Origin: Opitutales bacterium
GTDB taxonomy: Bacteria; Verrucomicrobiota; Verrucomicrobiia; Opitutales; UBA2987
Direction: 5' to 3'
DNA: 64,000 bases
Assembly: GCA_965226885.1 (NCBI GenBank)
Contig: CBDDEL010000014.1
Span: 160,001 to 224,000 of the forward strand
Of this stretch, positions 3,236 through 12,676 are shown one piece after another (the stretch's first letter is position 1; every line of letters begins with the position of its first letter). A program made the position numbers and the translations under genes. The notes beneath the pieces were generated by a model. It did no database searches. It had not been told where the DNA came from and worked only from the letters and a program-made list of their open reading frames with translations.

Positions 3236-3332
3236 CTTTTCCAAGCTTAAGAGTATGCATGAAACCTGTCTGAGACTTTTCATTCATCAATATAATCAAG
3301 AATTAGCCACCATTCCTACTTAATACACTACC

Positions 3333-4647
3333 GGGTGTTGCGCACGATGACCGCTCCGATCTTGATTAATTTGAGCCGCAGGGTGTGGCATTGGGCCCGC
3401 GCCCACTTCGTCCCTTTTAAGGCTAACCGGCGCATGGCTTCCATCAAGGTGTAGGCCAGCGCCGACAAGAGCAATCGGCACTGATTGGCCCACCATTGAT
3501 GGGCGCTGGTGCGCTCGCTGAACAATTGCATCTGTTCCTTGATTCGGTTCTCCATTTCACCGCGGCCACAGTATACCTTGTCGTAAAGCTCCTGGGGATC
3601 GCCCGGCAGGTTCGTCACCACGAAGCGCGGGTTGGACCCCTGTGCGGTGTGTTCGGCTTTATGGATGACCAACCGCAGCCATCGCCACGAATCGGCAGCA
3701 TAGACGAAGTCCTGGAATAACCGTTGTTTTTTACCCCTTAGTTCGAACCATTCTTTGGCCTGCTTTTGCAACTGCTGGGCGTCTTGCTGCAAGCGTGCAT
3801 TGCGAGCCATCCCCACGATGTAACTAACTTCGTTGCGGTCGCACCAAGAGAGTATCCGGTCTCGACAAAATCCACTGTCGGCGCGCCAAATAATCCGCGT
3901 ACGGGGCCAGCTTTGGCGAATCCGTTTAACCAGCAATTTGAGGATGGCCCCGGCATGCTTGCTGGCATCGATCTTGCTCGGCCGCAGGTAGGCCACCAGC
4001 AGCTGATCACCGCAAAAAACATATAGCGGCAGAAAACAGTAATGATCATAATAACCGTGGAAAAAACGTCCCTCCTGGAGCCCGTGCACCGGATTGTCGG
4101 TGGCGTCAAAGTCCAGGATGATCTCTTCGGGTTCCTCGGCAAAGGAGCCCATGAACTGTTCGACCAACAGCTCGTTTACCGCAAAGGCCGCCCGCCGATC
4201 CTGCCCGTTTTCAAAACGACACAAAGTCGGCGCGCTGGCCAACGTTTCAATGCGCCCCGTTACCGTTTGCAACAATGGATCGTGGCGCAGGGTATCAAAG
4301 TCGTTCAAATCCTCATAGCCCGCCACCAGCCCGTAAACGCGCTGCCGCAGCATCCCCAATACCTCATGGCGTACTTTGCCCTTCTGCCGTTTGTCCACTA
4401 ACTGTCGGGCCGCTCGTTCGGTCAAGCCCAACTGCCGATCCACTTCCCGGATCAAAAGCAGTCCGGCATCCGAAGTAACCTCTCCGCCCTTGAAATCAAC
4501 CCGCACACGGCGGCCTTTTACCCTTGTCAACTGTAGCTTTAATTGTTTACCTTTTGTCATCGCTGATATTGCTTTAATTATTGATCTATCCTGCTGTATA
4601 TCAGCAGTTAAGCATATCAACGATACTTTTTTTACGAAATATCCGGG
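3333..4647 (-). mobile_element. IS1380-family copy 1, 3'-truncated by the outer IS1
   Basis: Near-identical to the copies at 22180 and 35176. The ORF stops at VIVRNTR where the IS1 end begins. Left IR CCCGGATATTTC at 4647. Confidence 0.92.
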
Positions 4648-5269: not shown

Positions 5270-6478
5270 CTAACTGGTAGAGTCGAGGGCGAAGCGGATA
5301 TGGGGGGAGTAAAATTCCGGTTCGAGGAGGAAGGAGTCGTGGCCTTTTTCCGAATGAACGGTGATGCGGGTGGTTGGCAACTGGGCCTTTTTTAATTGGG
5401 ATTCGAGCCGTTTTTGCTCTTCCGGGAAATAGCAGGAATCGGAGTCGATGCTGAATATGAGGTGTCGCTGGTTCCGGCAGCAGCTGAACAGTTCCGTGTA
5501 ATCGGAAGTTTCTATATCGGCGAGGAGGTTGAAACTGGACCAGGCATCGAGAATTCTGAGGTAGGAATTGGCGTCAAACCGGCGGGCGAATTTTTTCCCC
5601 TGGTGCAGCATGTATGCCTCCAGGTCGTGATTGAATCGATACCAGTCGAATGATTTTTCCGAATGAGGCGTATTCTGTTTTACGCGGGTTTCGAGCAAAT
5701 CCGGGGCGACAAAAGTTTTATGGCTGATGATGCGGGCATGAGCCATGCCTGAATCGGGCGTTTTTTTACCATAATAGTTGCCGCTCTGGAAGTTCGCATC
5801 CTTTTCTATGGCGTAGATTTGCTCGAAAATAAGGATTTGTTGCCGCGGCGTTGTTTCCAACCCAGTGGCGATGAGGACGACGTTGCGCACCCGATCGGGA
5901 TAACGAACGGCAAAGTTGAGGGACAACTGGCCGCCGGTCGAGCTGCCCAGAACGGCGTGAGCAGTTTCGATGCCGAGATTATCGAGCAATTTTACCTGCG
6001 AATCCACTATGTCGAACAAGCTGATGCGGGGAAAAAGCGGCCCATAGGGAGCCGAAGTTTGAGGATTGATGGAGGTCGGTCCGGTGGAACCATAGCAGCC
6101 GCCCAGGTAATTTGCGCAGATGACGAAATATTGATCGGTATCGAGGGCCTTTCCGGGACCGATAAAGCGATCCCACCAACCAATCTGGCAGTCCTTTGTC
6201 CAGAGGGCGCCAACCCCCTCGACGGCGGGATTGAAACCGGCGGCGTGCTGGCTGCCGGTCAAAGCGTGAAAAAGAAGGATGGCGTTATCCCGCCGCCGGT
6301 TGAGGCGCCCGTAGGTTTCGTAACTGAGAGAGGCTTCCAGAAGGGATTCACCCGACTTCAATAAAATAGGATTGGAGGCATTTGCGATAGGCATCCACCG
6401 GGTCGTGGCGCGACCATTGGCGGAAACGGAAATGCTGCTTTCCCCAGTGCTCAAGGTTTTTGTCCTCTCGGAAATCAT
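5270..6478 (-). CDS. metX: Homoserine O-acetyltransferase (MetX family)
   Basis: HALTG, GGCYGSTGP, GSSTGG nucleophile, RRFDANSY and GHDSFLLE motifs. Confidence 0.9.
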   Translation of the reverse strand: MISERTKTLSTGESSISVSANGRATTRWMPIANASNPILLKSGESLLEASLSYETYGRLNRRRDNAILLFHALTGSQHAAGFNPAVEGVGALWTKDCQIGWWDRFIGPGKALDTDQYFVICANYLGGCYGSTGPTSINPQTSAPYGPLFPRISLFDIVDSQVKLLDNLGIETAHAVLGSSTGGQLSLNFAVRYPDRVRNVVLIATGLETTPRQQILIFEQIYAIEKDANFQSGNYYGKKTPDSGMAHARIISHKTFVAPDLLETRVKQNTPHSEKSFDWYRFNHDLEAYMLHQGKKFARRFDANSYLRILDAWSSFNLLADIETSDYTELFSCCRNQRHLIFSIDSDSCYFPEEQKRLESQLKKAQLPTTRITVHSEKGHDSFLLEPEFYSPHIRFALDSTS

Positions 6479-6509: not shown

Positions 6510-7811
6510 TCAGCCTGCACCCGCGAGGACGGTTGGCAAGGCTTTGCTGAAGGCCAGGTCGAGGTCTGCAAGAATGTCGTCGATATTTTCAATGCCCACA
6601 GATAACCGGATGAGGTCCGCGGTTATGCCGCCTGCTGCCTGCTGTTCCTCGGTCATTTGCGAATGTGTGGTGGTGGCCGGGTGAATAGCCAGGCTTTTGG
6701 CGTCACCGACATTTGCCAGATGCGAAAAGAGTTCGAGGCTTTCAATAAACTTGCTGCCCGCTTCCTTGCCGCCCTCGATTCCAAAGACGACCATGGCGCC
6801 GCCCTTGCCGCCCAGGTATTTCTGGTTCAGGGCATAGGCCGGATCGTTTTCCAGTCCCGGAAAGCGCACCCATTTGACGGCATCCTTTTTGCCAAGGTGT
6901 TTGGCCACCGCGAGGGCGTTTTCGCAATGCCGATCCATGCGTAAAGGAAGCGTTTCCACCCCTTGAAGGAAAATCCAGGCATTGTCCGGGGAAATGCAGG
7001 CGCCCAGGTTGCGCAGGGGCACTACCCTCATGCGGAGAATGAAAGCCAGTGGACTGAGATCGCCCAGGTCATGGGCCCAGCGAATGCCGTGGTAGCTCGG
7101 GTCGGGATCGGAAAGGAGGGGAAATTTCCCGCTCGTCCAGTCAAACTTGCCGGAATCTACCACCACTCCGCCAATGCCGGTGCCGTGGCCGCCGAGCCAC
7201 TTGGTGAGGGAATGAATAGAGAGATCCGCACCGAACTCTATGGGCCGCTCGAGGTAGGGAGTGGAAAAAGTGCTGTCCACCACCAGGGGAATCCCGTGGG
7301 CGTGAGCGATAGCGGCAATGGCCTCGATATCGGCCACATCAAGGCCGGGATTACTGACCGATTCGCAAAAGAGCAGTTTGGTTTTTTCCGTAATGGCGGC
7401 GGCAAAATTTTCTGGATGATTGGGATCGACGAAACGCGTCTTGATGCCGAACTGGGGCAGAATATCGTTAAACTGGGTGTAAGTGCCCCCATACAGATTG
7501 TTGGCCGATACAAGCTCGTCCCCGGCCTGGCAAAGATTGATTACCGAGTAGAACACGCCGCTGGTGCCCGAGGCCGTGAGGAGGGCGGCGGCCCCGCCGT
7601 CGAGGGCGGCAATGCGTTGTTCGAGGACATCGTGTGTCGGGTTCATGATGCGGCTGTAAATATTGCCGAGTTCTTTTAGGGCAAAGAGATTGGCCGCGTG
7701 TTCGGTGTTTTTGAACACATAGGAGCTGGTCCGATAAATGGGAACGGCGCGGGAATTGGTGGTGGGATCGGGCTGCGTCCCCCCATGAAGGCATGTGGTT
7801 TCAAATTTCAT
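6510..7811 (-). CDS. metY: O-acetylhomoserine aminocarboxypropyltransferase (sulfhydrylase)
   Basis: IYSRIMNPT, HSLTKWLGGHG (PLP lysine), HLANVGDAKSLAIHPATTTH. Confidence 0.92.
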   Translation of the reverse strand: MKFETTCLHGGTQPDPTTNSRAVPIYRTSSYVFKNTEHAANLFALKELGNIYSRIMNPTHDVLEQRIAALDGGAAALLTASGTSGVFYSVINLCQAGDELVSANNLYGGTYTQFNDILPQFGIKTRFVDPNHPENFAAAITEKTKLLFCESVSNPGLDVADIEAIAAIAHAHGIPLVVDSTFSTPYLERPIEFGADLSIHSLTKWLGGHGTGIGGVVVDSGKFDWTSGKFPLLSDPDPSYHGIRWAHDLGDLSPLAFILRMRVVPLRNLGACISPDNAWIFLQGVETLPLRMDRHCENALAVAKHLGKKDAVKWVRFPGLENDPAYALNQKYLGGKGGAMVVFGIEGGKEAGSKFIESLELFSHLANVGDAKSLAIHPATTTHSQMTEEQQAAGGITADLIRLSVGIENIDDILADLDLAFSKALPTVLAGAG

Positions 7812-7837: not shown

Positions 7838-8599
7838 TTAGGTATTTGATTTTGAAGGGTTGATTTTATCGCTGTAATTGATGTTGCAGTAAATGGGCCG
7901 GTTGCCGTTGGACGCCCTTAAGTGACGCCATCTCCCGGCCCGGCTGACTTCACCCGGTTTTACGGGAGTCGTGCAGACGGCGCATCCGATGCCTGCATAG
8001 GATTGAGCGTAAAGGGGGTGAACGGGGACATCATGCTCACGTATATAGGACTCTAATCGCTCAGAGTTCCAGTCAAAAAGCGGGTTGAAAACAGTGCAAT
8101 TAATGCGTGGGTCCCTGCTGATGGCCTGCACATCTGTGCGTCTATTGCCTTCGGCTCGCATGAGCCCGCTGATGAGGGCCTTGGCCTGGAAGCGATCGAC
8201 CGCTTTGATGAGGGGTAGTTCCTTGCGCAAATGGCAGCATAGGGGCTGTCCGTCAACATAGCGGTGAAGTTCCGCGGCAAACCTTTTGTTCTGTTCGAGG
8301 GGAGTCAGGTCCGGTTGCACAGTGGTAATATCCAGGCCGTATTTTTTCTGAAATTGATCCCGGATGGCCAGGGTCTCGGGAAAATGCAATTGGGTATCGA
8401 TAAAAACAATGTTGGCCTGTGCCCTGGTTCGGTAAATCATATGCATGAGGACGCCGGCCGTTTTCTGCATACTTGAGAGATGGATCGCTCGGGTGCCGTA
8501 AATGGCGTCGATCATACGAATCCGGTCCAGAGCATCCGCGGTCGCGAATTCCGCTTTATTGATTTCAGCTGCAAGTTCAGCTGCAAGCATAGTATTCAT
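7838..8599 (-). CDS. cysH: APS/PAPS reductase (CC + CxxC iron-sulfur type)
   Basis: FIDTQLHFPET, LCCHLRK, IGCAVCT, RAGRW. Start placed at ATG 8599, just after the cobA stop. Confidence 0.85.
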   Translation of the reverse strand: MNTMLAAELAAEINKAEFATADALDRIRMIDAIYGTRAIHLSSMQKTAGVLMHMIYRTRAQANIVFIDTQLHFPETLAIRDQFQKKYGLDITTVQPDLTPLEQNKRFAAELHRYVDGQPLCCHLRKELPLIKAVDRFQAKALISGLMRAEGNRRTDVQAISRDPRINCTVFNPLFDWNSERLESYIREHDVPVHPLYAQSYAGIGCAVCTTPVKPGEVSRAGRWRHLRASNGNRPIYCNINYSDKINPSKSNT

Positions 8600-8601
8600 G
8601 T

Positions 8602-9396
8602 TCAGGCGTTGACAATATAAGGTTGAGGTTGGTCGGTGAACTCCTGCCTCCCGGCGCAACCCAGTTGGCCGATGGCTGCTCCAATTTCGACCACAGGGCC
8701 GATGACGATTATGGCGGGGGGCTGCGCCTCGGCTGCTTTTTCCACGATATCGGCAAGGTTTCCGGTGTAGGTTTTCTGATCCGGCAAAGTTCCGCGCTCG
8801 ATAATGGCAACCGGTGTTTGCGGGCTTCGTCCAAACGTTGTCAGATTGGAAACGATTTCCCGCAGATGACGCACCCCCATGAGAAAGACGGCGGTGTCCA
8901 CCCGGGCGGCCAGTTCCCAATCGATCCCGAAGAGGGAGCCTCCGGCGGCATGCCCGGTAAATACGGCGAAATTAGCCGCCGTGCCCCTGTGGGTGAGGGG
9001 AATGCCCGACATGGCCGGCACTCCGCTGCACGAGCTGACACCCGGTATGAGTTGAAATTCAATGCCTGCCTGACGCAACTCAAGGCACTCCTCCGAACCG
9101 CGCCCAAATATGAACGGGTCGCCGCCCTTTAGCCGCACCACGGTTTTCCCCTGGCGGGCCCAGGCAATCAACAAACGCGCAATGCGTTCCTGCTCGCTGA
9201 ATGGCGTATGATTGCTCTGTTTGCCGACATAAATGTGCTCCGCCTGGGGGGCGTAAGAAGCGAGCAATGCTGGATTGACGAGCCGGTCGTAAAGGACGAC
9301 ATCCGCCTGCTTGAGGGCTTCCACCGCGCCCACCGTAATCAAGGATGGATCCCCTGGGCCCGCCCCCGCAATAATCACTTTTCCTGTCGTCGTCAT
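8602..9396 (-). CDS. cobA: Uroporphyrinogen-III C-methyltransferase
   Basis: GAGPGDP, YDRLV, RLKGGDPFIFGRG motifs. Confidence 0.92.
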   Translation of the reverse strand: MTTTGKVIIAGAGPGDPSLITVGAVEALKQADVVLYDRLVNPALLASYAPQAEHIYVGKQSNHTPFSEQERIARLLIAWARQGKTVVRLKGGDPFIFGRGSEECLELRQAGIEFQLIPGVSSCSGVPAMSGIPLTHRGTAANFAVFTGHAAGGSLFGIDWELAARVDTAVFLMGVRHLREIVSNLTTFGRSPQTPVAIIERGTLPDQKTYTGNLADIVEKAAEAQPPAIIVIGPVVEIGAAIGQLGCAGRQEFTDQPQPYIVNA

Positions 9397-9416: not shown

Positions 9417-10103
9417 CTAAACCAGAACGGGTTCTTCCCGCGCCGATACCTTTTCGTTTTTGAATGATTCCAATAATTCGTTGAACCGTGCTTCCGCCGC
9501 TCCATCATTTTTCTTCAGGAGGCCGGGTAATGACGATTCGAGGACTGCGCTCCAAAATTGTTTGCGCACTTCATAGGTGGGCAGGGACCTGATGACCAAT
9601 GGGCGTTTGGATCCCAGGAAATCGGCCAGTTGACCGAGAGAATCGGTCAGCAGATGGCGTTCAATCCTGTTCCTCAATCGTTGGGCCATGGCCGGGCTTT
9701 TCCCGGAAGATGTGACCGCTACCTGAATCGGCCCGGAGCGGGCCACGGCGGGGTAGATGAAATTGCTGTTAGCCGCGTCGTCATGGGAATTGACAAGCTG
9801 CCGAGACATTGCAGAAGGGGAGCAGACCTCGCTTTTCTCCGCCTCGTCATCGGTCGTGACAACGACTAGAAAAGCGTCAATCGCATCGGAGGCCCGCACT
9901 TTCCGCCGCAACCACCGTACCTGGCCCTTTTCAGCCCACGACTGGATTTTGTCGTCCGCATTTTCAGCAATAATCGTTACCACGGCTCCAGCATGAAGGA
10001 AGCTTTCGATCCGGGAAATGGCAACTTCGCCACCGCCCACGACCAGGCATCGGCGGTCTGCCAAATCGAGGTATACGGGAAAATAATTGTTCGATGCGGT
10101 CAT
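9417..10103 (-). CDS. Precorrin-2 dehydrogenase/sirohydrochlorin ferrochelatase (CysG N-terminal/Met8-like)
   Basis: YFPVYLDL, LVVGGGEVA, TSSGKSP motifs. Adjacent to cobA and sulfite reductase. Confidence 0.88.
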   Translation of the reverse strand: MTASNNYFPVYLDLADRRCLVVGGGEVAISRIESFLHAGAVVTIIAENADDKIQSWAEKGQVRWLRRKVRASDAIDAFLVVVTTDDEAEKSEVCSPSAMSRQLVNSHDDAANSNFIYPAVARSGPIQVAVTSSGKSPAMAQRLRNRIERHLLTDSLGQLADFLGSKRPLVIRSLPTYEVRKQFWSAVLESSLPGLLKKNDGAAEARFNELLESFKNEKVSAREEPVLV

Positions 10104-10106
10104 GAT

Positions 10107-11966
10107 TCAGGCGGGAACGAGGTCTTTCTCGGTAGTTTGATCCGGTTTTGAGTCCATAAATGTTGTTACCGTTTCGGGTTTCATCAGATCGACGGTGGCG
10201 GGGTTTTCCTGAAAGCGGCGAATAATGTCTTGCATTCCGGTGCGCCGCAGAAAGGCGCCCAAATCCTCGGCTTCGCTGCGGTTTTCAAGGTAAAACCGAA
10301 AAAGGACGTCGATGACGCCGGGGATCCGATCGAGGGGCACTTTTCTCAGGTAAAGCTGCGAGCCGTCAGTTGAGAGGACGGGCACTCCCTGAAAACGCCC
10401 GTCTGCCGAGCCGAGGAGCCTGATTTGGTAGCGGCCACTGCCGGAACCGATCAACCCGATGGTTTTGGTCGCCGGGCGGAAGCATTGGCGCTCGCACCCG
10501 GTTACACCGATCGATTCGGTCATGCCGCCCCAGCCGAGTTTTTCCAATTGGTCGATTAGGAGGGGTTCGATTTTTTCAGATTCGGTGTAGGCCAGGCGGC
10601 AGGTATCCAGGCCGACGCAGGCGCCCGATCGTAACCGGAGCGCCGAGTAGTCCGACCCATTGCGCGAGCCGTAGCCATGTTCCTTCAGGTCGGAAGTAAA
10701 CTCCTCTTTCGCTTCCGATGGAAGGCCTGCGAAGATCAGGTCCTGGTTCGGTGTGAATCGAAGTTCCACCGGATATTTGTCCATGATGAATCGAACCAGA
10801 GTTTTTAAACGGCCGTTGGGGCTATCGTCCGTCAACCGCCCGTTTTCGATGAATAATCCGTAATTAACCATATCATCGTCGGGATGATCCAGCCAGCCGT
10901 GGTGCAGGTGGCGTTTACCGATATCGTGGTCTGTATGGGGGGCATCGAGGGAGAAACCGGCAATATCCTCAACCTGGCGGCGGTACCAATCGATCCCCTG
11001 GGCTTTGACGACGTATTTGAGGCGCGCCCAATGCCGGTTTTGGCGGTCTCCCCAGGTTTGATGGACCTGCACGATGGCGTCGAGAATGGGCAGGAGGTTT
11101 GCTTCGGAAGCCTGGGCAAAGGGCTTGGCAAAGGCGGACATGGTCGGTTTGCCGTTCTTCTCGCCCTGGCCCCCGCCAATGTAGATTTGAAAACCTTGCA
11201 GCTTTTCCTGGCGCACCAACGGGGCAATTCCAAGGTCGTGGGTGAGCAGCTCGACGCAATTGTCGGGAATCAATAAACCAGTGGTTTTGTCGCGGATATG
11301 CGCGGAAATGCCGATTTTAAATTTTCGATTGAGGAGCTGCTTGCCGTATTTGAAGGATTTGCTGTCATCGCGAACGGCTTCCGGGTCGATGGCGAAAATC
11401 TTGACAAAAGGTTCTGCCGGCAGACGGAAAAAGCTGGTCAGCTGCTGGGCCAGCCGGTTGCCATTGAAGGTATCGCTGAACGAAGCCAGAGGGCAGGCCA
11501 TGACATTGCGGACATTGTCGCCGCAGCCATTGATGCTGTAGAGTCCGCTATGGGCCAGGGTGCGCACAATTTCAATAACATCCTGTTTCCTGACCCAGTG
11601 AAACTGGAGGTTCTGCCGGGTGGTAATGCGTAGCGAAGGCCGGTGTTCAGCGGCATGGGCATAGCGCTCGGATAAATCATCGAGGACCCGCCATTGCTCA
11701 CTTGTAATGGGGCCGCCACCGGGAATCGAAACGCGGATCATATAAACCCAATCCTTTTCCCGGCCCGTCCTGGCCCGGTTGTATTCGAGGTAGATGCCGT
11801 AGGATTTGCTCAGTTGCTCGGCTTCCCAGGCCAGCTTGGGATCGTCCTGGCGCAACTCTTCGTAAAGATCGCCACGCACTCCGTTGGAAGCCGCTTTGTT
11901 GAGCTCTTCTCGCGAGTGATCCTGCTGTGGGGTCAGGAAATTGGGTTCGAAAAATTTCTTTTTCAC
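10107..11966 (-). CDS. cysI: Siroheme sulfite reductase hemoprotein (CysI/Sir family)
   Basis: RITTRQNLQFH, GCGDNVRNV, RKFKIG, ACVGLDTC...TGCERQC siroheme/4Fe-4S ligands. Confidence 0.88.
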   Translation of the reverse strand: MKKKFFEPNFLTPQQDHSREELNKAASNGVRGDLYEELRQDDPKLAWEAEQLSKSYGIYLEYNRARTGREKDWVYMIRVSIPGGGPITSEQWRVLDDLSERYAHAAEHRPSLRITTRQNLQFHWVRKQDVIEIVRTLAHSGLYSINGCGDNVRNVMACPLASFSDTFNGNRLAQQLTSFFRLPAEPFVKIFAIDPEAVRDDSKSFKYGKQLLNRKFKIGISAHIRDKTTGLLIPDNCVELLTHDLGIAPLVRQEKLQGFQIYIGGGQGEKNGKPTMSAFAKPFAQASEANLLPILDAIVQVHQTWGDRQNRHWARLKYVVKAQGIDWYRRQVEDIAGFSLDAPHTDHDIGKRHLHHGWLDHPDDDMVNYGLFIENGRLTDDSPNGRLKTLVRFIMDKYPVELRFTPNQDLIFAGLPSEAKEEFTSDLKEHGYGSRNGSDYSALRLRSGACVGLDTCRLAYTESEKIEPLLIDQLEKLGWGGMTESIGVTGCERQCFRPATKTIGLIGSGSGRYQIRLLGSADGRFQGVPVLSTDGSQLYLRKVPLDRIPGVIDVLFRFYLENRSEAEDLGAFLRRTGMQDIIRRFQENPATVDLMKPETVTTFMDSKPDQTTEKDLVPA

Positions 11967-12041: not shown

Positions 12042-12254
12042 TTACTTATGTTGACTGAGGGTCCCGATAATTTCGTCTCGCCGCTGCCGGGCTTCGGCCA
12101 GGGATTTTGTGCCCAGAGAATGGCGGATCCGCTTTTTCGTCAGATAAGTTGGGTGAACGGTATAGTGAATGAACCATGTTCCATTATTGTTCCACAGGTG
12201 GTGGTTGGGATTATCGAGAGAAAACCTCAAGGCTTTGGGGTGATCTGTTTTCAT
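12042..12254 (-). CDS. Small basic hypothetical protein (70 aa), first gene after the attenuator
   Basis: Clean ORF between terminator and sulfite reductase. The RHSLGTKSLAEARQRRD segment resembles integrase arm-type DNA-binding domains. Confidence 0.7.
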   Translation of the reverse strand: MKTDHPKALRFSLDNPNHHLWNNNGTWFIHYTVHPTYLTKKRIRHSLGTKSLAEARQRRDEIIGTLSQHK

Positions 12255-12312: not shown

Positions 12313-12356
12313 AAAAACAAAAAAAGCCCCGCAGCTTGAGGAGGCTGCGGGGCTTT
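12313..12356 (-). terminator. Intrinsic terminator in the 5' leader of the sulfur operon (attenuator)
   Basis: Minus strand AAAGCCCCGCAGC-CTCCTCAA-GCTGCGGGGCTTT, ending in TTTTTTTGTTTTT. Confidence 0.9.
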
Positions 12357-12397
12357 AAAAAGTTAGTTCAGGTCTTATTATATTTTACCTGGTCGCT

Positions 12398-12535
12398 CTA
12401 TTTGATGGCACAGCCGTTCTCCTGTTGTTGGTTGATGCAACAGCACATAATCGCCATAATTATACAAATCCATGCCCCCGCCTTCGATATGAAGGGGATT
12501 TCAATGAATCCGAAACGATGTGTGTCAATAGACAT
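12398..12535 (-). CDS. Putative Cys/Met-rich leader peptide (45 aa)
   Basis: MSIDTHRFGFIEIPFISKAGAWICIIMAIMCCCINQQQENGCAIK*. Ends 41 nt before the terminator, and its 3' end is complementary to the terminator 5' arm. Confidence 0.75.
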   Translation of the reverse strand: MSIDTHRFGFIEIPFISKAGAWICIIMAIMCCCINQQQENGCAIK

Positions 12536-12559
12536 GCTCAAAATAATAATTCGACGGGT

Positions 12560-12588
12560 ATTTATCGGTTGAGAGTCTCTCAAGTCAA
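12560..12588 (-). promoter_or_regulatory. Putative promoter with a 15-bp palindrome
   Basis: TTGACT (-35-like, 12583-12588) followed by TTGAGAG-A-CTCTCAA (12569-12583). The -10 match is weak. Confidence 0.4.
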
Positions 12589-12638
12589 GAGAGATTCCCA
12601 AAAAACTGTGTCATAAAATTTTTCTCGGTCAAATCCGT

Positions 12639-12676
12639 CTTTAAGCAAACCTGCTGCCTTTAAGCAAACCTGCTGC
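12639..12676. repeat. 19-bp tandem duplication (intergenic)
   Basis: CTTTAAGCAAACCTGCTGC x2. Confidence 0.95.

Follow-up and report, generated by a model that had tools for sequence, protein, structure and literature searches.

A candidate cysteine- and methionine-codon attenuator ahead of a sulfur assimilation operon in an Opitutales bacterium, at the place of an S-adenosylmethionine riboswitch in relatives

Which signal controls the sulfur assimilation genes of an Opitutales bacterium (Verrucomicrobiota) in which a short open reading frame (ORF), carrying a cluster of Cys and Met codons and followed by an intrinsic terminator, directly precedes an operon reaching from sulfite reduction to metY and metX? 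The locus lies in a stretch of 64,000 nucleotides (GenBank assembly GCA_965226885.1, contig CBDDEL010000014.1, positions 160,001 to 224,000), called here the window. Most documented cases of leader-peptide attenuation concern Trp, His, Thr, Leu, Ile/Val and Phe in Proteobacteria. Control of sulfur amino acids is commonly by S-adenosylmethionine (SAM) riboswitches, T-boxes or protein regulators, and gene regulation in Verrucomicrobia is almost unstudied. A preliminary description of the window had read the element as an attenuator sensing both Cys and Met. Our analysis, in which the anatomy, conservation, frame behaviour, stop position and alternative folds of the leader were computed, finds a ribosome-mediated leader-peptide transcription attenuator to be the best explanation, with a probability of about 0.65, while the sensing of Met is less supported than that of Cys.

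A leader ORF with Cys and Met codons

All coordinates given in the preliminary description, namely those of the 45-codon ORF, the Cys/Met cluster, the AGGA-gaac-GGCUGUG strand, the small hairpin and the terminator, proved correct when re-read from the sequence (Table 1). A DNA search for the leader in 41 genomes (the 5.48-Mb genome of the window, G000, and 40 relatives) yielded long matches, with 68–81% identity, only in G000 and in all four other genomes of the genus (G001, G002, G003 and G004). None of the four other genomes of the family matched, and six further matches of 24–67 nt with E values of 0.001–0.007 were taken as chance. The genes orf70-cysI-sirC-cobA-cysH-metY-metX come after the leader in each of the four relatives. 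The amidohydrolase gene found upstream in the window adjoins the leader only in G003 and G004 among these relatives, and the upstream neighbour differs in G001. Since the leader stands upstream of the same operon in all five genomes and the amidohydrolase gene does not always accompany it, the leader travels with the operon. The alignment of orthologous leaders that had been suggested shows that the open frame, its Cys/Met codons and the terminator are conserved in the five genomes.

The codon cluster reads CIIMAIMCCC, CMMMMIMCCC, CIIMINMCCC, CMMMIMCCC and IDMCLCII in the five species. Three consecutive Cys codons are thus found in four species and C-L-C in the fifth (G001); one to five Met codons precede them, and the AUG directly ahead of the Cys codons is invariant. 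In a close marine strain, represented by contigs of four sequencing runs, the leader is free of insertions and deletions, an ATA>ATG change at 12461 converts Ile25 to Met and so adds one Met codon, and the variants at 12378, 12379 and 12384 fall in the loop of the small hairpin. The amino acids of the cluster match the operon, as had been noted, the genes running from sulfite reduction to metY/metX.

The combination is rare in the genome. Among 286 sites with three consecutive Cys codons (all frames, both strands), only that of the window lies in an ATG-started frame of at most 80 codons with a strong terminator at most 160 nt past the stop. Conversely, a scan of the 279 strong terminators of the genome found a Met/Cys-rich upstream frame only here and in one frame ending in a GGM repeat, which we take to resemble a chaperonin tail. 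No short Met/Cys-rich ORF was found upstream of the homocysteine-methyltransferase-like gene of G000.

The variation of the cluster bears on the question which codons would be read. An attenuator responding to Cys alone, in which Met and Ile codons are hydrophobic or ATG-repeat filler, is unlikely in our estimate, and its probability is part of that given above for attenuation, not additional to it. The Cys codons are indeed the invariant part (CCC in four of five species, C-L-C in the fifth) and the Met count varies from one to five; ATG, ATA and ATT interconvert by single third-position changes; and the published leaders of such kind read Cys alone (PMC8632094, PMC1262725, bioRxiv 10.1101/834739). 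This variant does not account for the invariant AUG directly before the Cys codons or for the gain of Met codons seen in G003, G002 and the marine strain; moreover, the operon ends in metY-metX, and relatives use at the same position a SAM sensor, that is, a signal of the methionine pathway. Sensing of Met codons in addition to Cys codons is a tentative proposal, which we rate at somewhat under even odds, and it is less secure than Cys sensing because one species, G001, holds only M-C-L-C, a point that counts against the dual reading.

Within the leader ORF, conservation is highest in the block ATT-ATG-TGC-TGT-TGC-ATC-AA. Such conservation would also be expected if the nascent peptide (…IMCCCIN…) arrested the ribosome on a small molecule in the manner of TnaC, instead of a stall on uncharged transfer RNA (tRNA), but G001 reads DMCLCII at this block, and we consider peptide-dependent arrest very improbable.

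Several observations suggest that the leader is translated. The distance from the AUG to the conserved AUGUGC block is 87, 81, 87, 81 and 72 nt in the five species, always a multiple of three. The leader frame contains no stop codon in any of them, compared with totals of 14 and 10 for the two remaining frames, and it stays open in only 6–15% of shuffles. Substitutions fall equally at all three codon positions, with no third-position bias, which indicates that the peptide itself is not under selection, as expected of a leader peptide; its sequence is unconserved, and its C-terminus differs in frame between species. This difference arises past the Cys block, from a 1-nt deletion in G004 and a 2-nt insertion in G002. 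The element GGCUGYGCC is kept as nucleotides in all five species although it is read in two frames, and in both frame-shifted species a UGA lies 1 nt past it. The stop codon is found 6, 6, 1, 1 and 0 nt beyond GGCUGYGCC in the five species. A stop codon that tracks an RNA element across a frame change appears hard to explain unless the ribosome terminates there. An alternative 31-codon frame (12473-12378) was rejected, its start codon being absent in G002 and G001.

The leader ORF has no Shine-Dalgarno (SD) sequence. In this genome an SD-like 4-mer precedes only 250 of 1028 well-defined gene starts, as against 17% of random 17-mers, so that the absence of an SD sequence at the leader is normal here; sequences upstream of gene starts are A/T-rich.

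A second leader in the genome concerns threonine. A 23-codon ORF with six Thr codons and a terminator lies directly upstream of thrS (L173:348-490, plus strand, corresponding to about 191047-191189 of contig C16 of G000), and both ORF and terminator are kept, Thr-rich, in the five genomes of the genus. We regard it as a candidate for Thr-codon attenuation of this tRNA synthetase gene; it lends independent support to ribosome-read terminators in the genus. Another candidate, an 8-codon frame with four Phe codons and a terminator (L174:4451-4477, minus strand, contig C15 of G000), precedes PhyH and enolase-superfamily genes with no link to Phe metabolism and is probably due to chance.

Competing folds of the leader RNA

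In the consensus fold of the five leaders all 13 pairs of the terminator are retained, three of them with changes on both sides, and the stem energy ranges from -18.5 to -28.1 kcal/mol across species. Region 2, which reads AGGA-GAAC-GGCTGTG at 12423-12409, is complementary to the 5' arm and loop of the terminator (region 3), in agreement with the preliminary description. The antiterminator proposed on this basis joins alignment columns 137-147 with 214-223. In this register 90% of cells are paired, compared with 38–58% when the partner is slid by 1–3 columns, and both partners have been substituted in two of the pairs (AU/GC and CG/UG/UA). In four of the five leaders no other segment binds the terminator 5' arm and loop more stably than region 2; in G000 region 2 ranks second, behind the G-rich 3' strand of the hairpin H1. 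The two antiterminator strands are separated by about 57 nt, in which the small hairpin is enclosed; of the five pairs of this hairpin, two have changed on both sides.

The folding test that had been proposed, with the ribosome as a constraint, was carried out by allowing only the RNA 3' of a stalled ribosome to fold, before the terminator 3' arm emerges. A ribosome placed at the Met/Cys codons gives the antiterminator as the minimum-energy fold in all five species, with 8–12 pairs; one placed at the stop codon gives it in none.

Other results weigh against the attenuator. The covarying stems that had been expected are present in the terminator, with its compensatory changes, but covariation in the antiterminator lacks statistical significance, its score being reached by 92 of 500 shuffles, and the five aligned sequences, all of one genus, do not count as independent. 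The antiterminator has a core duplex of only 6–7 bp; when single leaders are shuffled, 3 to 123 of 300 shuffles yield a duplex at least as stable. With the full-length RNA the terminator always wins thermodynamically, irrespective of which part is masked, so that any control must be kinetic. When the ribosome is merely masked and the transcript ends before the terminator 3' arm, the antiterminator forms only in G000 and G003, and the remaining three species show region 2 paired to the start-codon region. The model therefore needs both kinetic control and a steric barrier, which are assumed. No convincing anti-antiterminator was found in the folds or the alignment of the five leaders: the candidates are H1 and the helix between the start region and region 2 (87% of cells paired, no covariation), neither of which overlaps the regulatory codons in the classical way. 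Finally, the promoter-like site is not listed by a simple consensus scan because its -10 hexamer is non-canonical. The inner stem CCCCU/GGGGG of H1 is retained in the consensus fold, and H1 may be a pause or structural hairpin.

From the features described we infer the translation of the leader, its transcription start, the stalling, and the response to Cys and Met, which would combine in attenuation as follows. The transcript would start near 12553, giving a short A/U-rich 5' leader of 18 nt ahead of the AUG at 12535, from which translation would begin. If Cys-tRNA, and probably also Met-tRNA, were scarce, the ribosome would stall at 12466-12437 with the end of its footprint upstream of 12423, leaving AGGAGAAC-GGCUGUG free. 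The free strand could then pair with the newly made 12349-12339 and block the terminator, and RNA polymerase would continue into orf70-cysI-sirC-cobA-cysH-metY-metX. With both tRNAs charged, the ribosome would reach the stop, 0–6 nt past GGCUGYGCC, and cover region 2; the 13-bp terminator would then form and transcription would end.

orf70, the operon and the SAM-I/IV riboswitch

The first gene after the terminator, orf70, was missed by the preliminary description, whose names for the other operon genes agree with Pfam. It is 70–89% identical in the four other genomes of the genus. Pfam gives for it a match to DUF6538 (arm DNA-binding-like) at 24.9 bits, under the cut-off of 27, and a match to Arm-DNA-bind_3 that is also sub-threshold; a search of NCBIfam found no family, and the predicted structure has a mean predicted local distance difference test score (pLDDT) of 58, too low for a fold search. 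A protein collection includes 802 relatives of orf70, 38–123 aa long and all unnamed, from Opitutaceae, Chthoniobacter, Lentisphaerae and others. Those found in Verrucomicrobia, Lentisphaerae and Kiritimatiellia form a large family of proteins of 70–100 aa with invariant His, Trp and Asn positions. The weak likeness to DUF6538 and arm DNA-binding domains hints at a small DNA-binding protein linked to methionine/SAM status. We rejected the possibility that orf70 is an integrase stub beside a tRNA gene: ARAGORN detected no tRNA or tmRNA genes in 15 loci, and the homologs are free-standing small genes.

Among the best 80 of 216 relatives of orf70 in a genome collection, cysI follows orf70 only in four loci of the same genus. 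Elsewhere orf70 is a free-standing gene, almost always behind a conserved structured RNA, which the Rfam SAM-I/IV model scores at 32–37.5 bits, just under its gathering cut-off of 41.1. A simple pattern of the aptamer core is found in 127 of 145 orf70 loci having at least 300 nt upstream. A covariance model of this RNA, R1, built from 27 sequences upstream of orf70, matches 73 of the 80 loci at E ≤0.001; seven loci are missed, namely the four of the same genus, two from Lentisphaerae and one whose upstream sequence is only 142 nt long. A metagenome scan with orf70 kept 80 loci, none of them from this genus, and yielded no further leader sequence.

No such aptamer core (P1 CAUC/GAUG, CCAACC, GGUGG and a pseudoknot) was detected in the leader, and we rejected its identity with the SAM-I/IV riboswitch (RF01725) on the results of Rfam, RF01725 and R1. 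With filters off, R1 gave no match on the leader strand of the five genus loci and a best score anywhere of 7.1 bits; two matches of 1.6–1.7 bits overlap the leader on the opposite strand, in one locus only (L005). RF01725 matched none of the five genus genomes. Rfam at gathering scores gave no match in the whole window, and at E values up to 5 only chance-level matches to the window locus (L001): the trpB motif (27 versus 59 bits), the L10 leader (24 versus 44 bits) and two others. Within the family, R1 matched all three genomes of a sister genus and none of the six others, with 150 first-look candidates scored per genome. The SAM riboswitch of the sister genus lies ahead of a homocysteine S-methyltransferase gene (L179:1501-1641, plus strand; also L180 and L181), and a sirC homolog is found near this locus on the other strand.

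The leader and the riboswitches appear to share what lies upstream. Of 124 orf70 loci in other Verrucomicrobia, 61 have the core heptamer of TTTATGACAC, in either orientation, no more than 120 nt ahead of the aptamer, and TTTATGACAC or its reverse complement GTGTCATAA stands directly upstream of the -35 box of the orf70 promoter across the phylum. Its orientation upstream of aptamers differs between Chthoniobacter and Opitutales (L016-L144). The shared heptamer suggests that the promoter module is common to these loci, with the Met/Cys leader in the place of the aptamer. TTTATGACAC may be the binding site of a regulator; the strict pattern TTTATGACAC…GGAAT…TTGAC was found only at this locus in the genome, and no regulon was detected. 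Between the amidohydrolase gene and the leader promoter, a 19-nt unit, GCAGCAGGTTTGCTTAAAG, forms a direct repeat of two copies (12639-12676, minus strand) that does not align in relatives.

The position, identical to that of the SAM-I/IV riboswitch in relatives, is regulatory. We tentatively propose, as a possibility a little short of an even chance, that the riboswitch was replaced in situ by an attenuator responding to the charging of Met-tRNA and Cys-tRNA, between the retained promoter element and orf70, and that this coincided with orf70 joining the genes of sulfite reduction and direct sulfhydrylation.

The same position could also be occupied by an untranslated structured RNA, either a new riboswitch or the target of a protein or small RNA (sRNA), which would control the terminator and of which the open frame would be a by-product. 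Several blocks conserved at the nucleotide level, the predicted H1 and the predicted helix of the start region with region 2, and the lack of an SD sequence are compatible with such an RNA. It leaves unexplained, however, the open frame with its length steps of three and a stop that tracks region 2 across a frame shift, would make a Cys/Met cluster before sulfur genes a coincidence, and finds no match in Rfam at gathering scores or with R1 on the leader strand; we regard it as improbable. Still less probable is that the element forms a small gene of its own, for a hydrophobic peptide or an sRNA, and that the operon is driven from elsewhere. The leader does have its own promoter-like site, a very strong terminator and a peptide with a hydrophobic middle, but the peptide is unconserved with a C-terminus that changes frame among species, a simple promoter scan found no promoter-like site on the minus strand between the terminator and orf70, and the promoter element of the leader is the same as that which drives orf70 in other Verrucomicrobia. 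Attenuation by a translated leader thus remains the preferred reading.

The operon genes after orf70 were assigned by Pfam, in the order cysI-sirC-cobA-cysH-metY-metX (Table 1). For cysH, the Met codon at 8599 or that at 8590 is the likely start, as a longer TTG-started frame would overlap cobA. The name metX is a putative one, taken from the preliminary description, and the size and context of the gene agree with it. Downstream of metX, past a gap of about 650 nt in which the G+C content drops to 0.42–0.46, lies a DDE transposase gene (DDE_Tnp_1_4; 3328-4620, minus strand).

Table 1. Features of the leader and the operon on the minus strand of the window locus
Feature	Positions in the window	Strand	Remarks
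Conserved TTTATGACAC element	12608..12617	-	Directly upstream of the -35 box; invariant in the five genus genomes
Promoter-like TTGACT-N17-ATAAAT	12560..12588	-	Read from the sequence; kept in the five genus genomes
Putative transcription start	~12553	-	Placed from the promoter-like site
Leader ORF, 45 codons and TAG	12398..12535	-	ATG 12535-12533, TAG 12400-12398
Hairpin H1, within the leader ORF	12464..12512	-	Ends where the Met/Cys cluster begins; in all minimum-energy folds
Regulatory codon cluster C-I-I-M-A-I-M-C-C-C	12437..12466	-	Codons 24-33; read from the sequence
Triple Cys codons TGC TGT TGC	12445-12437	-	Read from the sequence
Region 2, candidate antiterminator 5' strand	12407..12423	-	AGGAGAAC-GGCUGUGCC; starts 13 nt past the last Cys codon
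Small hairpin CAGGU/ACCUG	12369..12391	-	12391-12387 with 12373-12369; would be enclosed by the antiterminator
Intrinsic terminator	12313..12356	-	13-bp stem, 8-nt loop, U-tract; stem 12356-12323, then TTTTGTTTTT to 12313
Region 3, in terminator 5' arm and loop	12339..12349	-	CGCAGCCTCCT; complementary to region 2
orf70, first operon gene	12042..12254	-	70 codons; between terminator and cysI; match to DUF6538 below cut-off
cysI, sulfite reductase haemoprotein	10107..11966	-	Pfam NIR_SIR and NIR_SIR_ferr; NCBIfam sulfite reductase models below equivalog cut-offs
sirC / cysG N-terminal part, sirohaem synthase N-terminal type	9417..10103	-	Pfam NAD_binding_7, Sirohm_synth_M, CysG_dimeriser
cobA-type uroporphyrinogen methyltransferase	8602..9396	-	Pfam TP_methylase
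cysH, APS/PAPS reductase	7838..8599	-	Pfam PAPS_reduct
metY, O-acetylhomoserine sulfhydrylase type	6510..7811	-	Pfam Cys_Met_Meta_PP
metX, homoserine O-acetyltransferase type	5270..6478	-	Pfam Abhydrolase_1 only

Comparison with known attenuators and riboswitches

The classical leader-peptide attenuators are those of the enterobacterial trp, his, thr, leu and pheA operons. The element described here shares with them a short leader ORF, whose translation is predicted, with clustered codons for the pathway product; an intrinsic terminator before the first structural gene and an upstream strand predicted to compete for its 5' arm; and a stop codon placed so that the terminating ribosome would cover the competing strand. 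It differs in its Cys and Met codons, in its occurrence in Verrucomicrobia, in the absence of an SD sequence and of a clear 1:2 hairpin over the regulatory codons, and in the stretch of about 57 nt with an enclosed hairpin between the antiterminator strands. No methionine-codon leader attenuator was found among the papers listed in full-text searches, whose coverage largely excludes subscription journals.

Cys-codon leaders have been reported elsewhere. The uORFC-8-2 motif, which precedes cysS in Rhodobacterales, is a predicted ribosome-mediated attenuator with two tandem Cys codons and, ahead of a U run, a stem resembling a terminator (PMC8632094). The window leader likewise has tandem Cys codons in an upstream ORF and a terminator-type stem with a U run; compared with the motif, which has two Cys codons and stands before a tRNA synthetase gene in alpha-proteobacteria, it has three Cys codons as well as Met codons, precedes a biosynthetic operon and differs in sequence and structure (PMC8632094). 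In Actinobacteria, Cys-rich leader ORFs have been predicted, with no obvious terminators (PMC1262725), and in mycobacteria leaderless polycysteine ORFs act by unmasking a ribosome-binding site (bioRxiv 10.1101/834739). Common to these leaders and to that of the window are short ORFs with a Cys run upstream of cysteine-metabolism operons, in which the ribosome would sense the cysteine supply, whereas the 5' leader, the intrinsic terminator and the Met codons set the window locus apart (PMC1262725, bioRxiv 10.1101/834739). We rejected its assignment to the mycobacterial class of leaderless polycysteine small ORFs in view of the 18-nt leader (given the putative start) and the intrinsic terminator (bioRxiv 10.1101/834739).

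With the SAM-I/IV riboswitch (RF01725) the leader shares its place between the same promoter element and orf70, and the pathway on which it would report. In Opitutaceae the riboswitch, too, has a terminator at its end, and an upstream strand pairs with the 5' arm and loop of this terminator. Unlike the riboswitch, which senses SAM directly through its aptamer, the window leader has no detectable aptamer. The element is a variant of a known mechanism, made more interesting by its position, which in relatives is occupied by a SAM-I/IV riboswitch. If our reading is true, methionine would be added to the amino acids sensed by attenuation and Verrucomicrobia to the phyla that use it, and the locus would represent a clean natural swap of a metabolite-sensing RNA for a tRNA-charging sensor at one orthologous position. 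Riboswitch and leader loci behind the same promoter element would then form a defined pair for asking why a lineage swaps its sensors.

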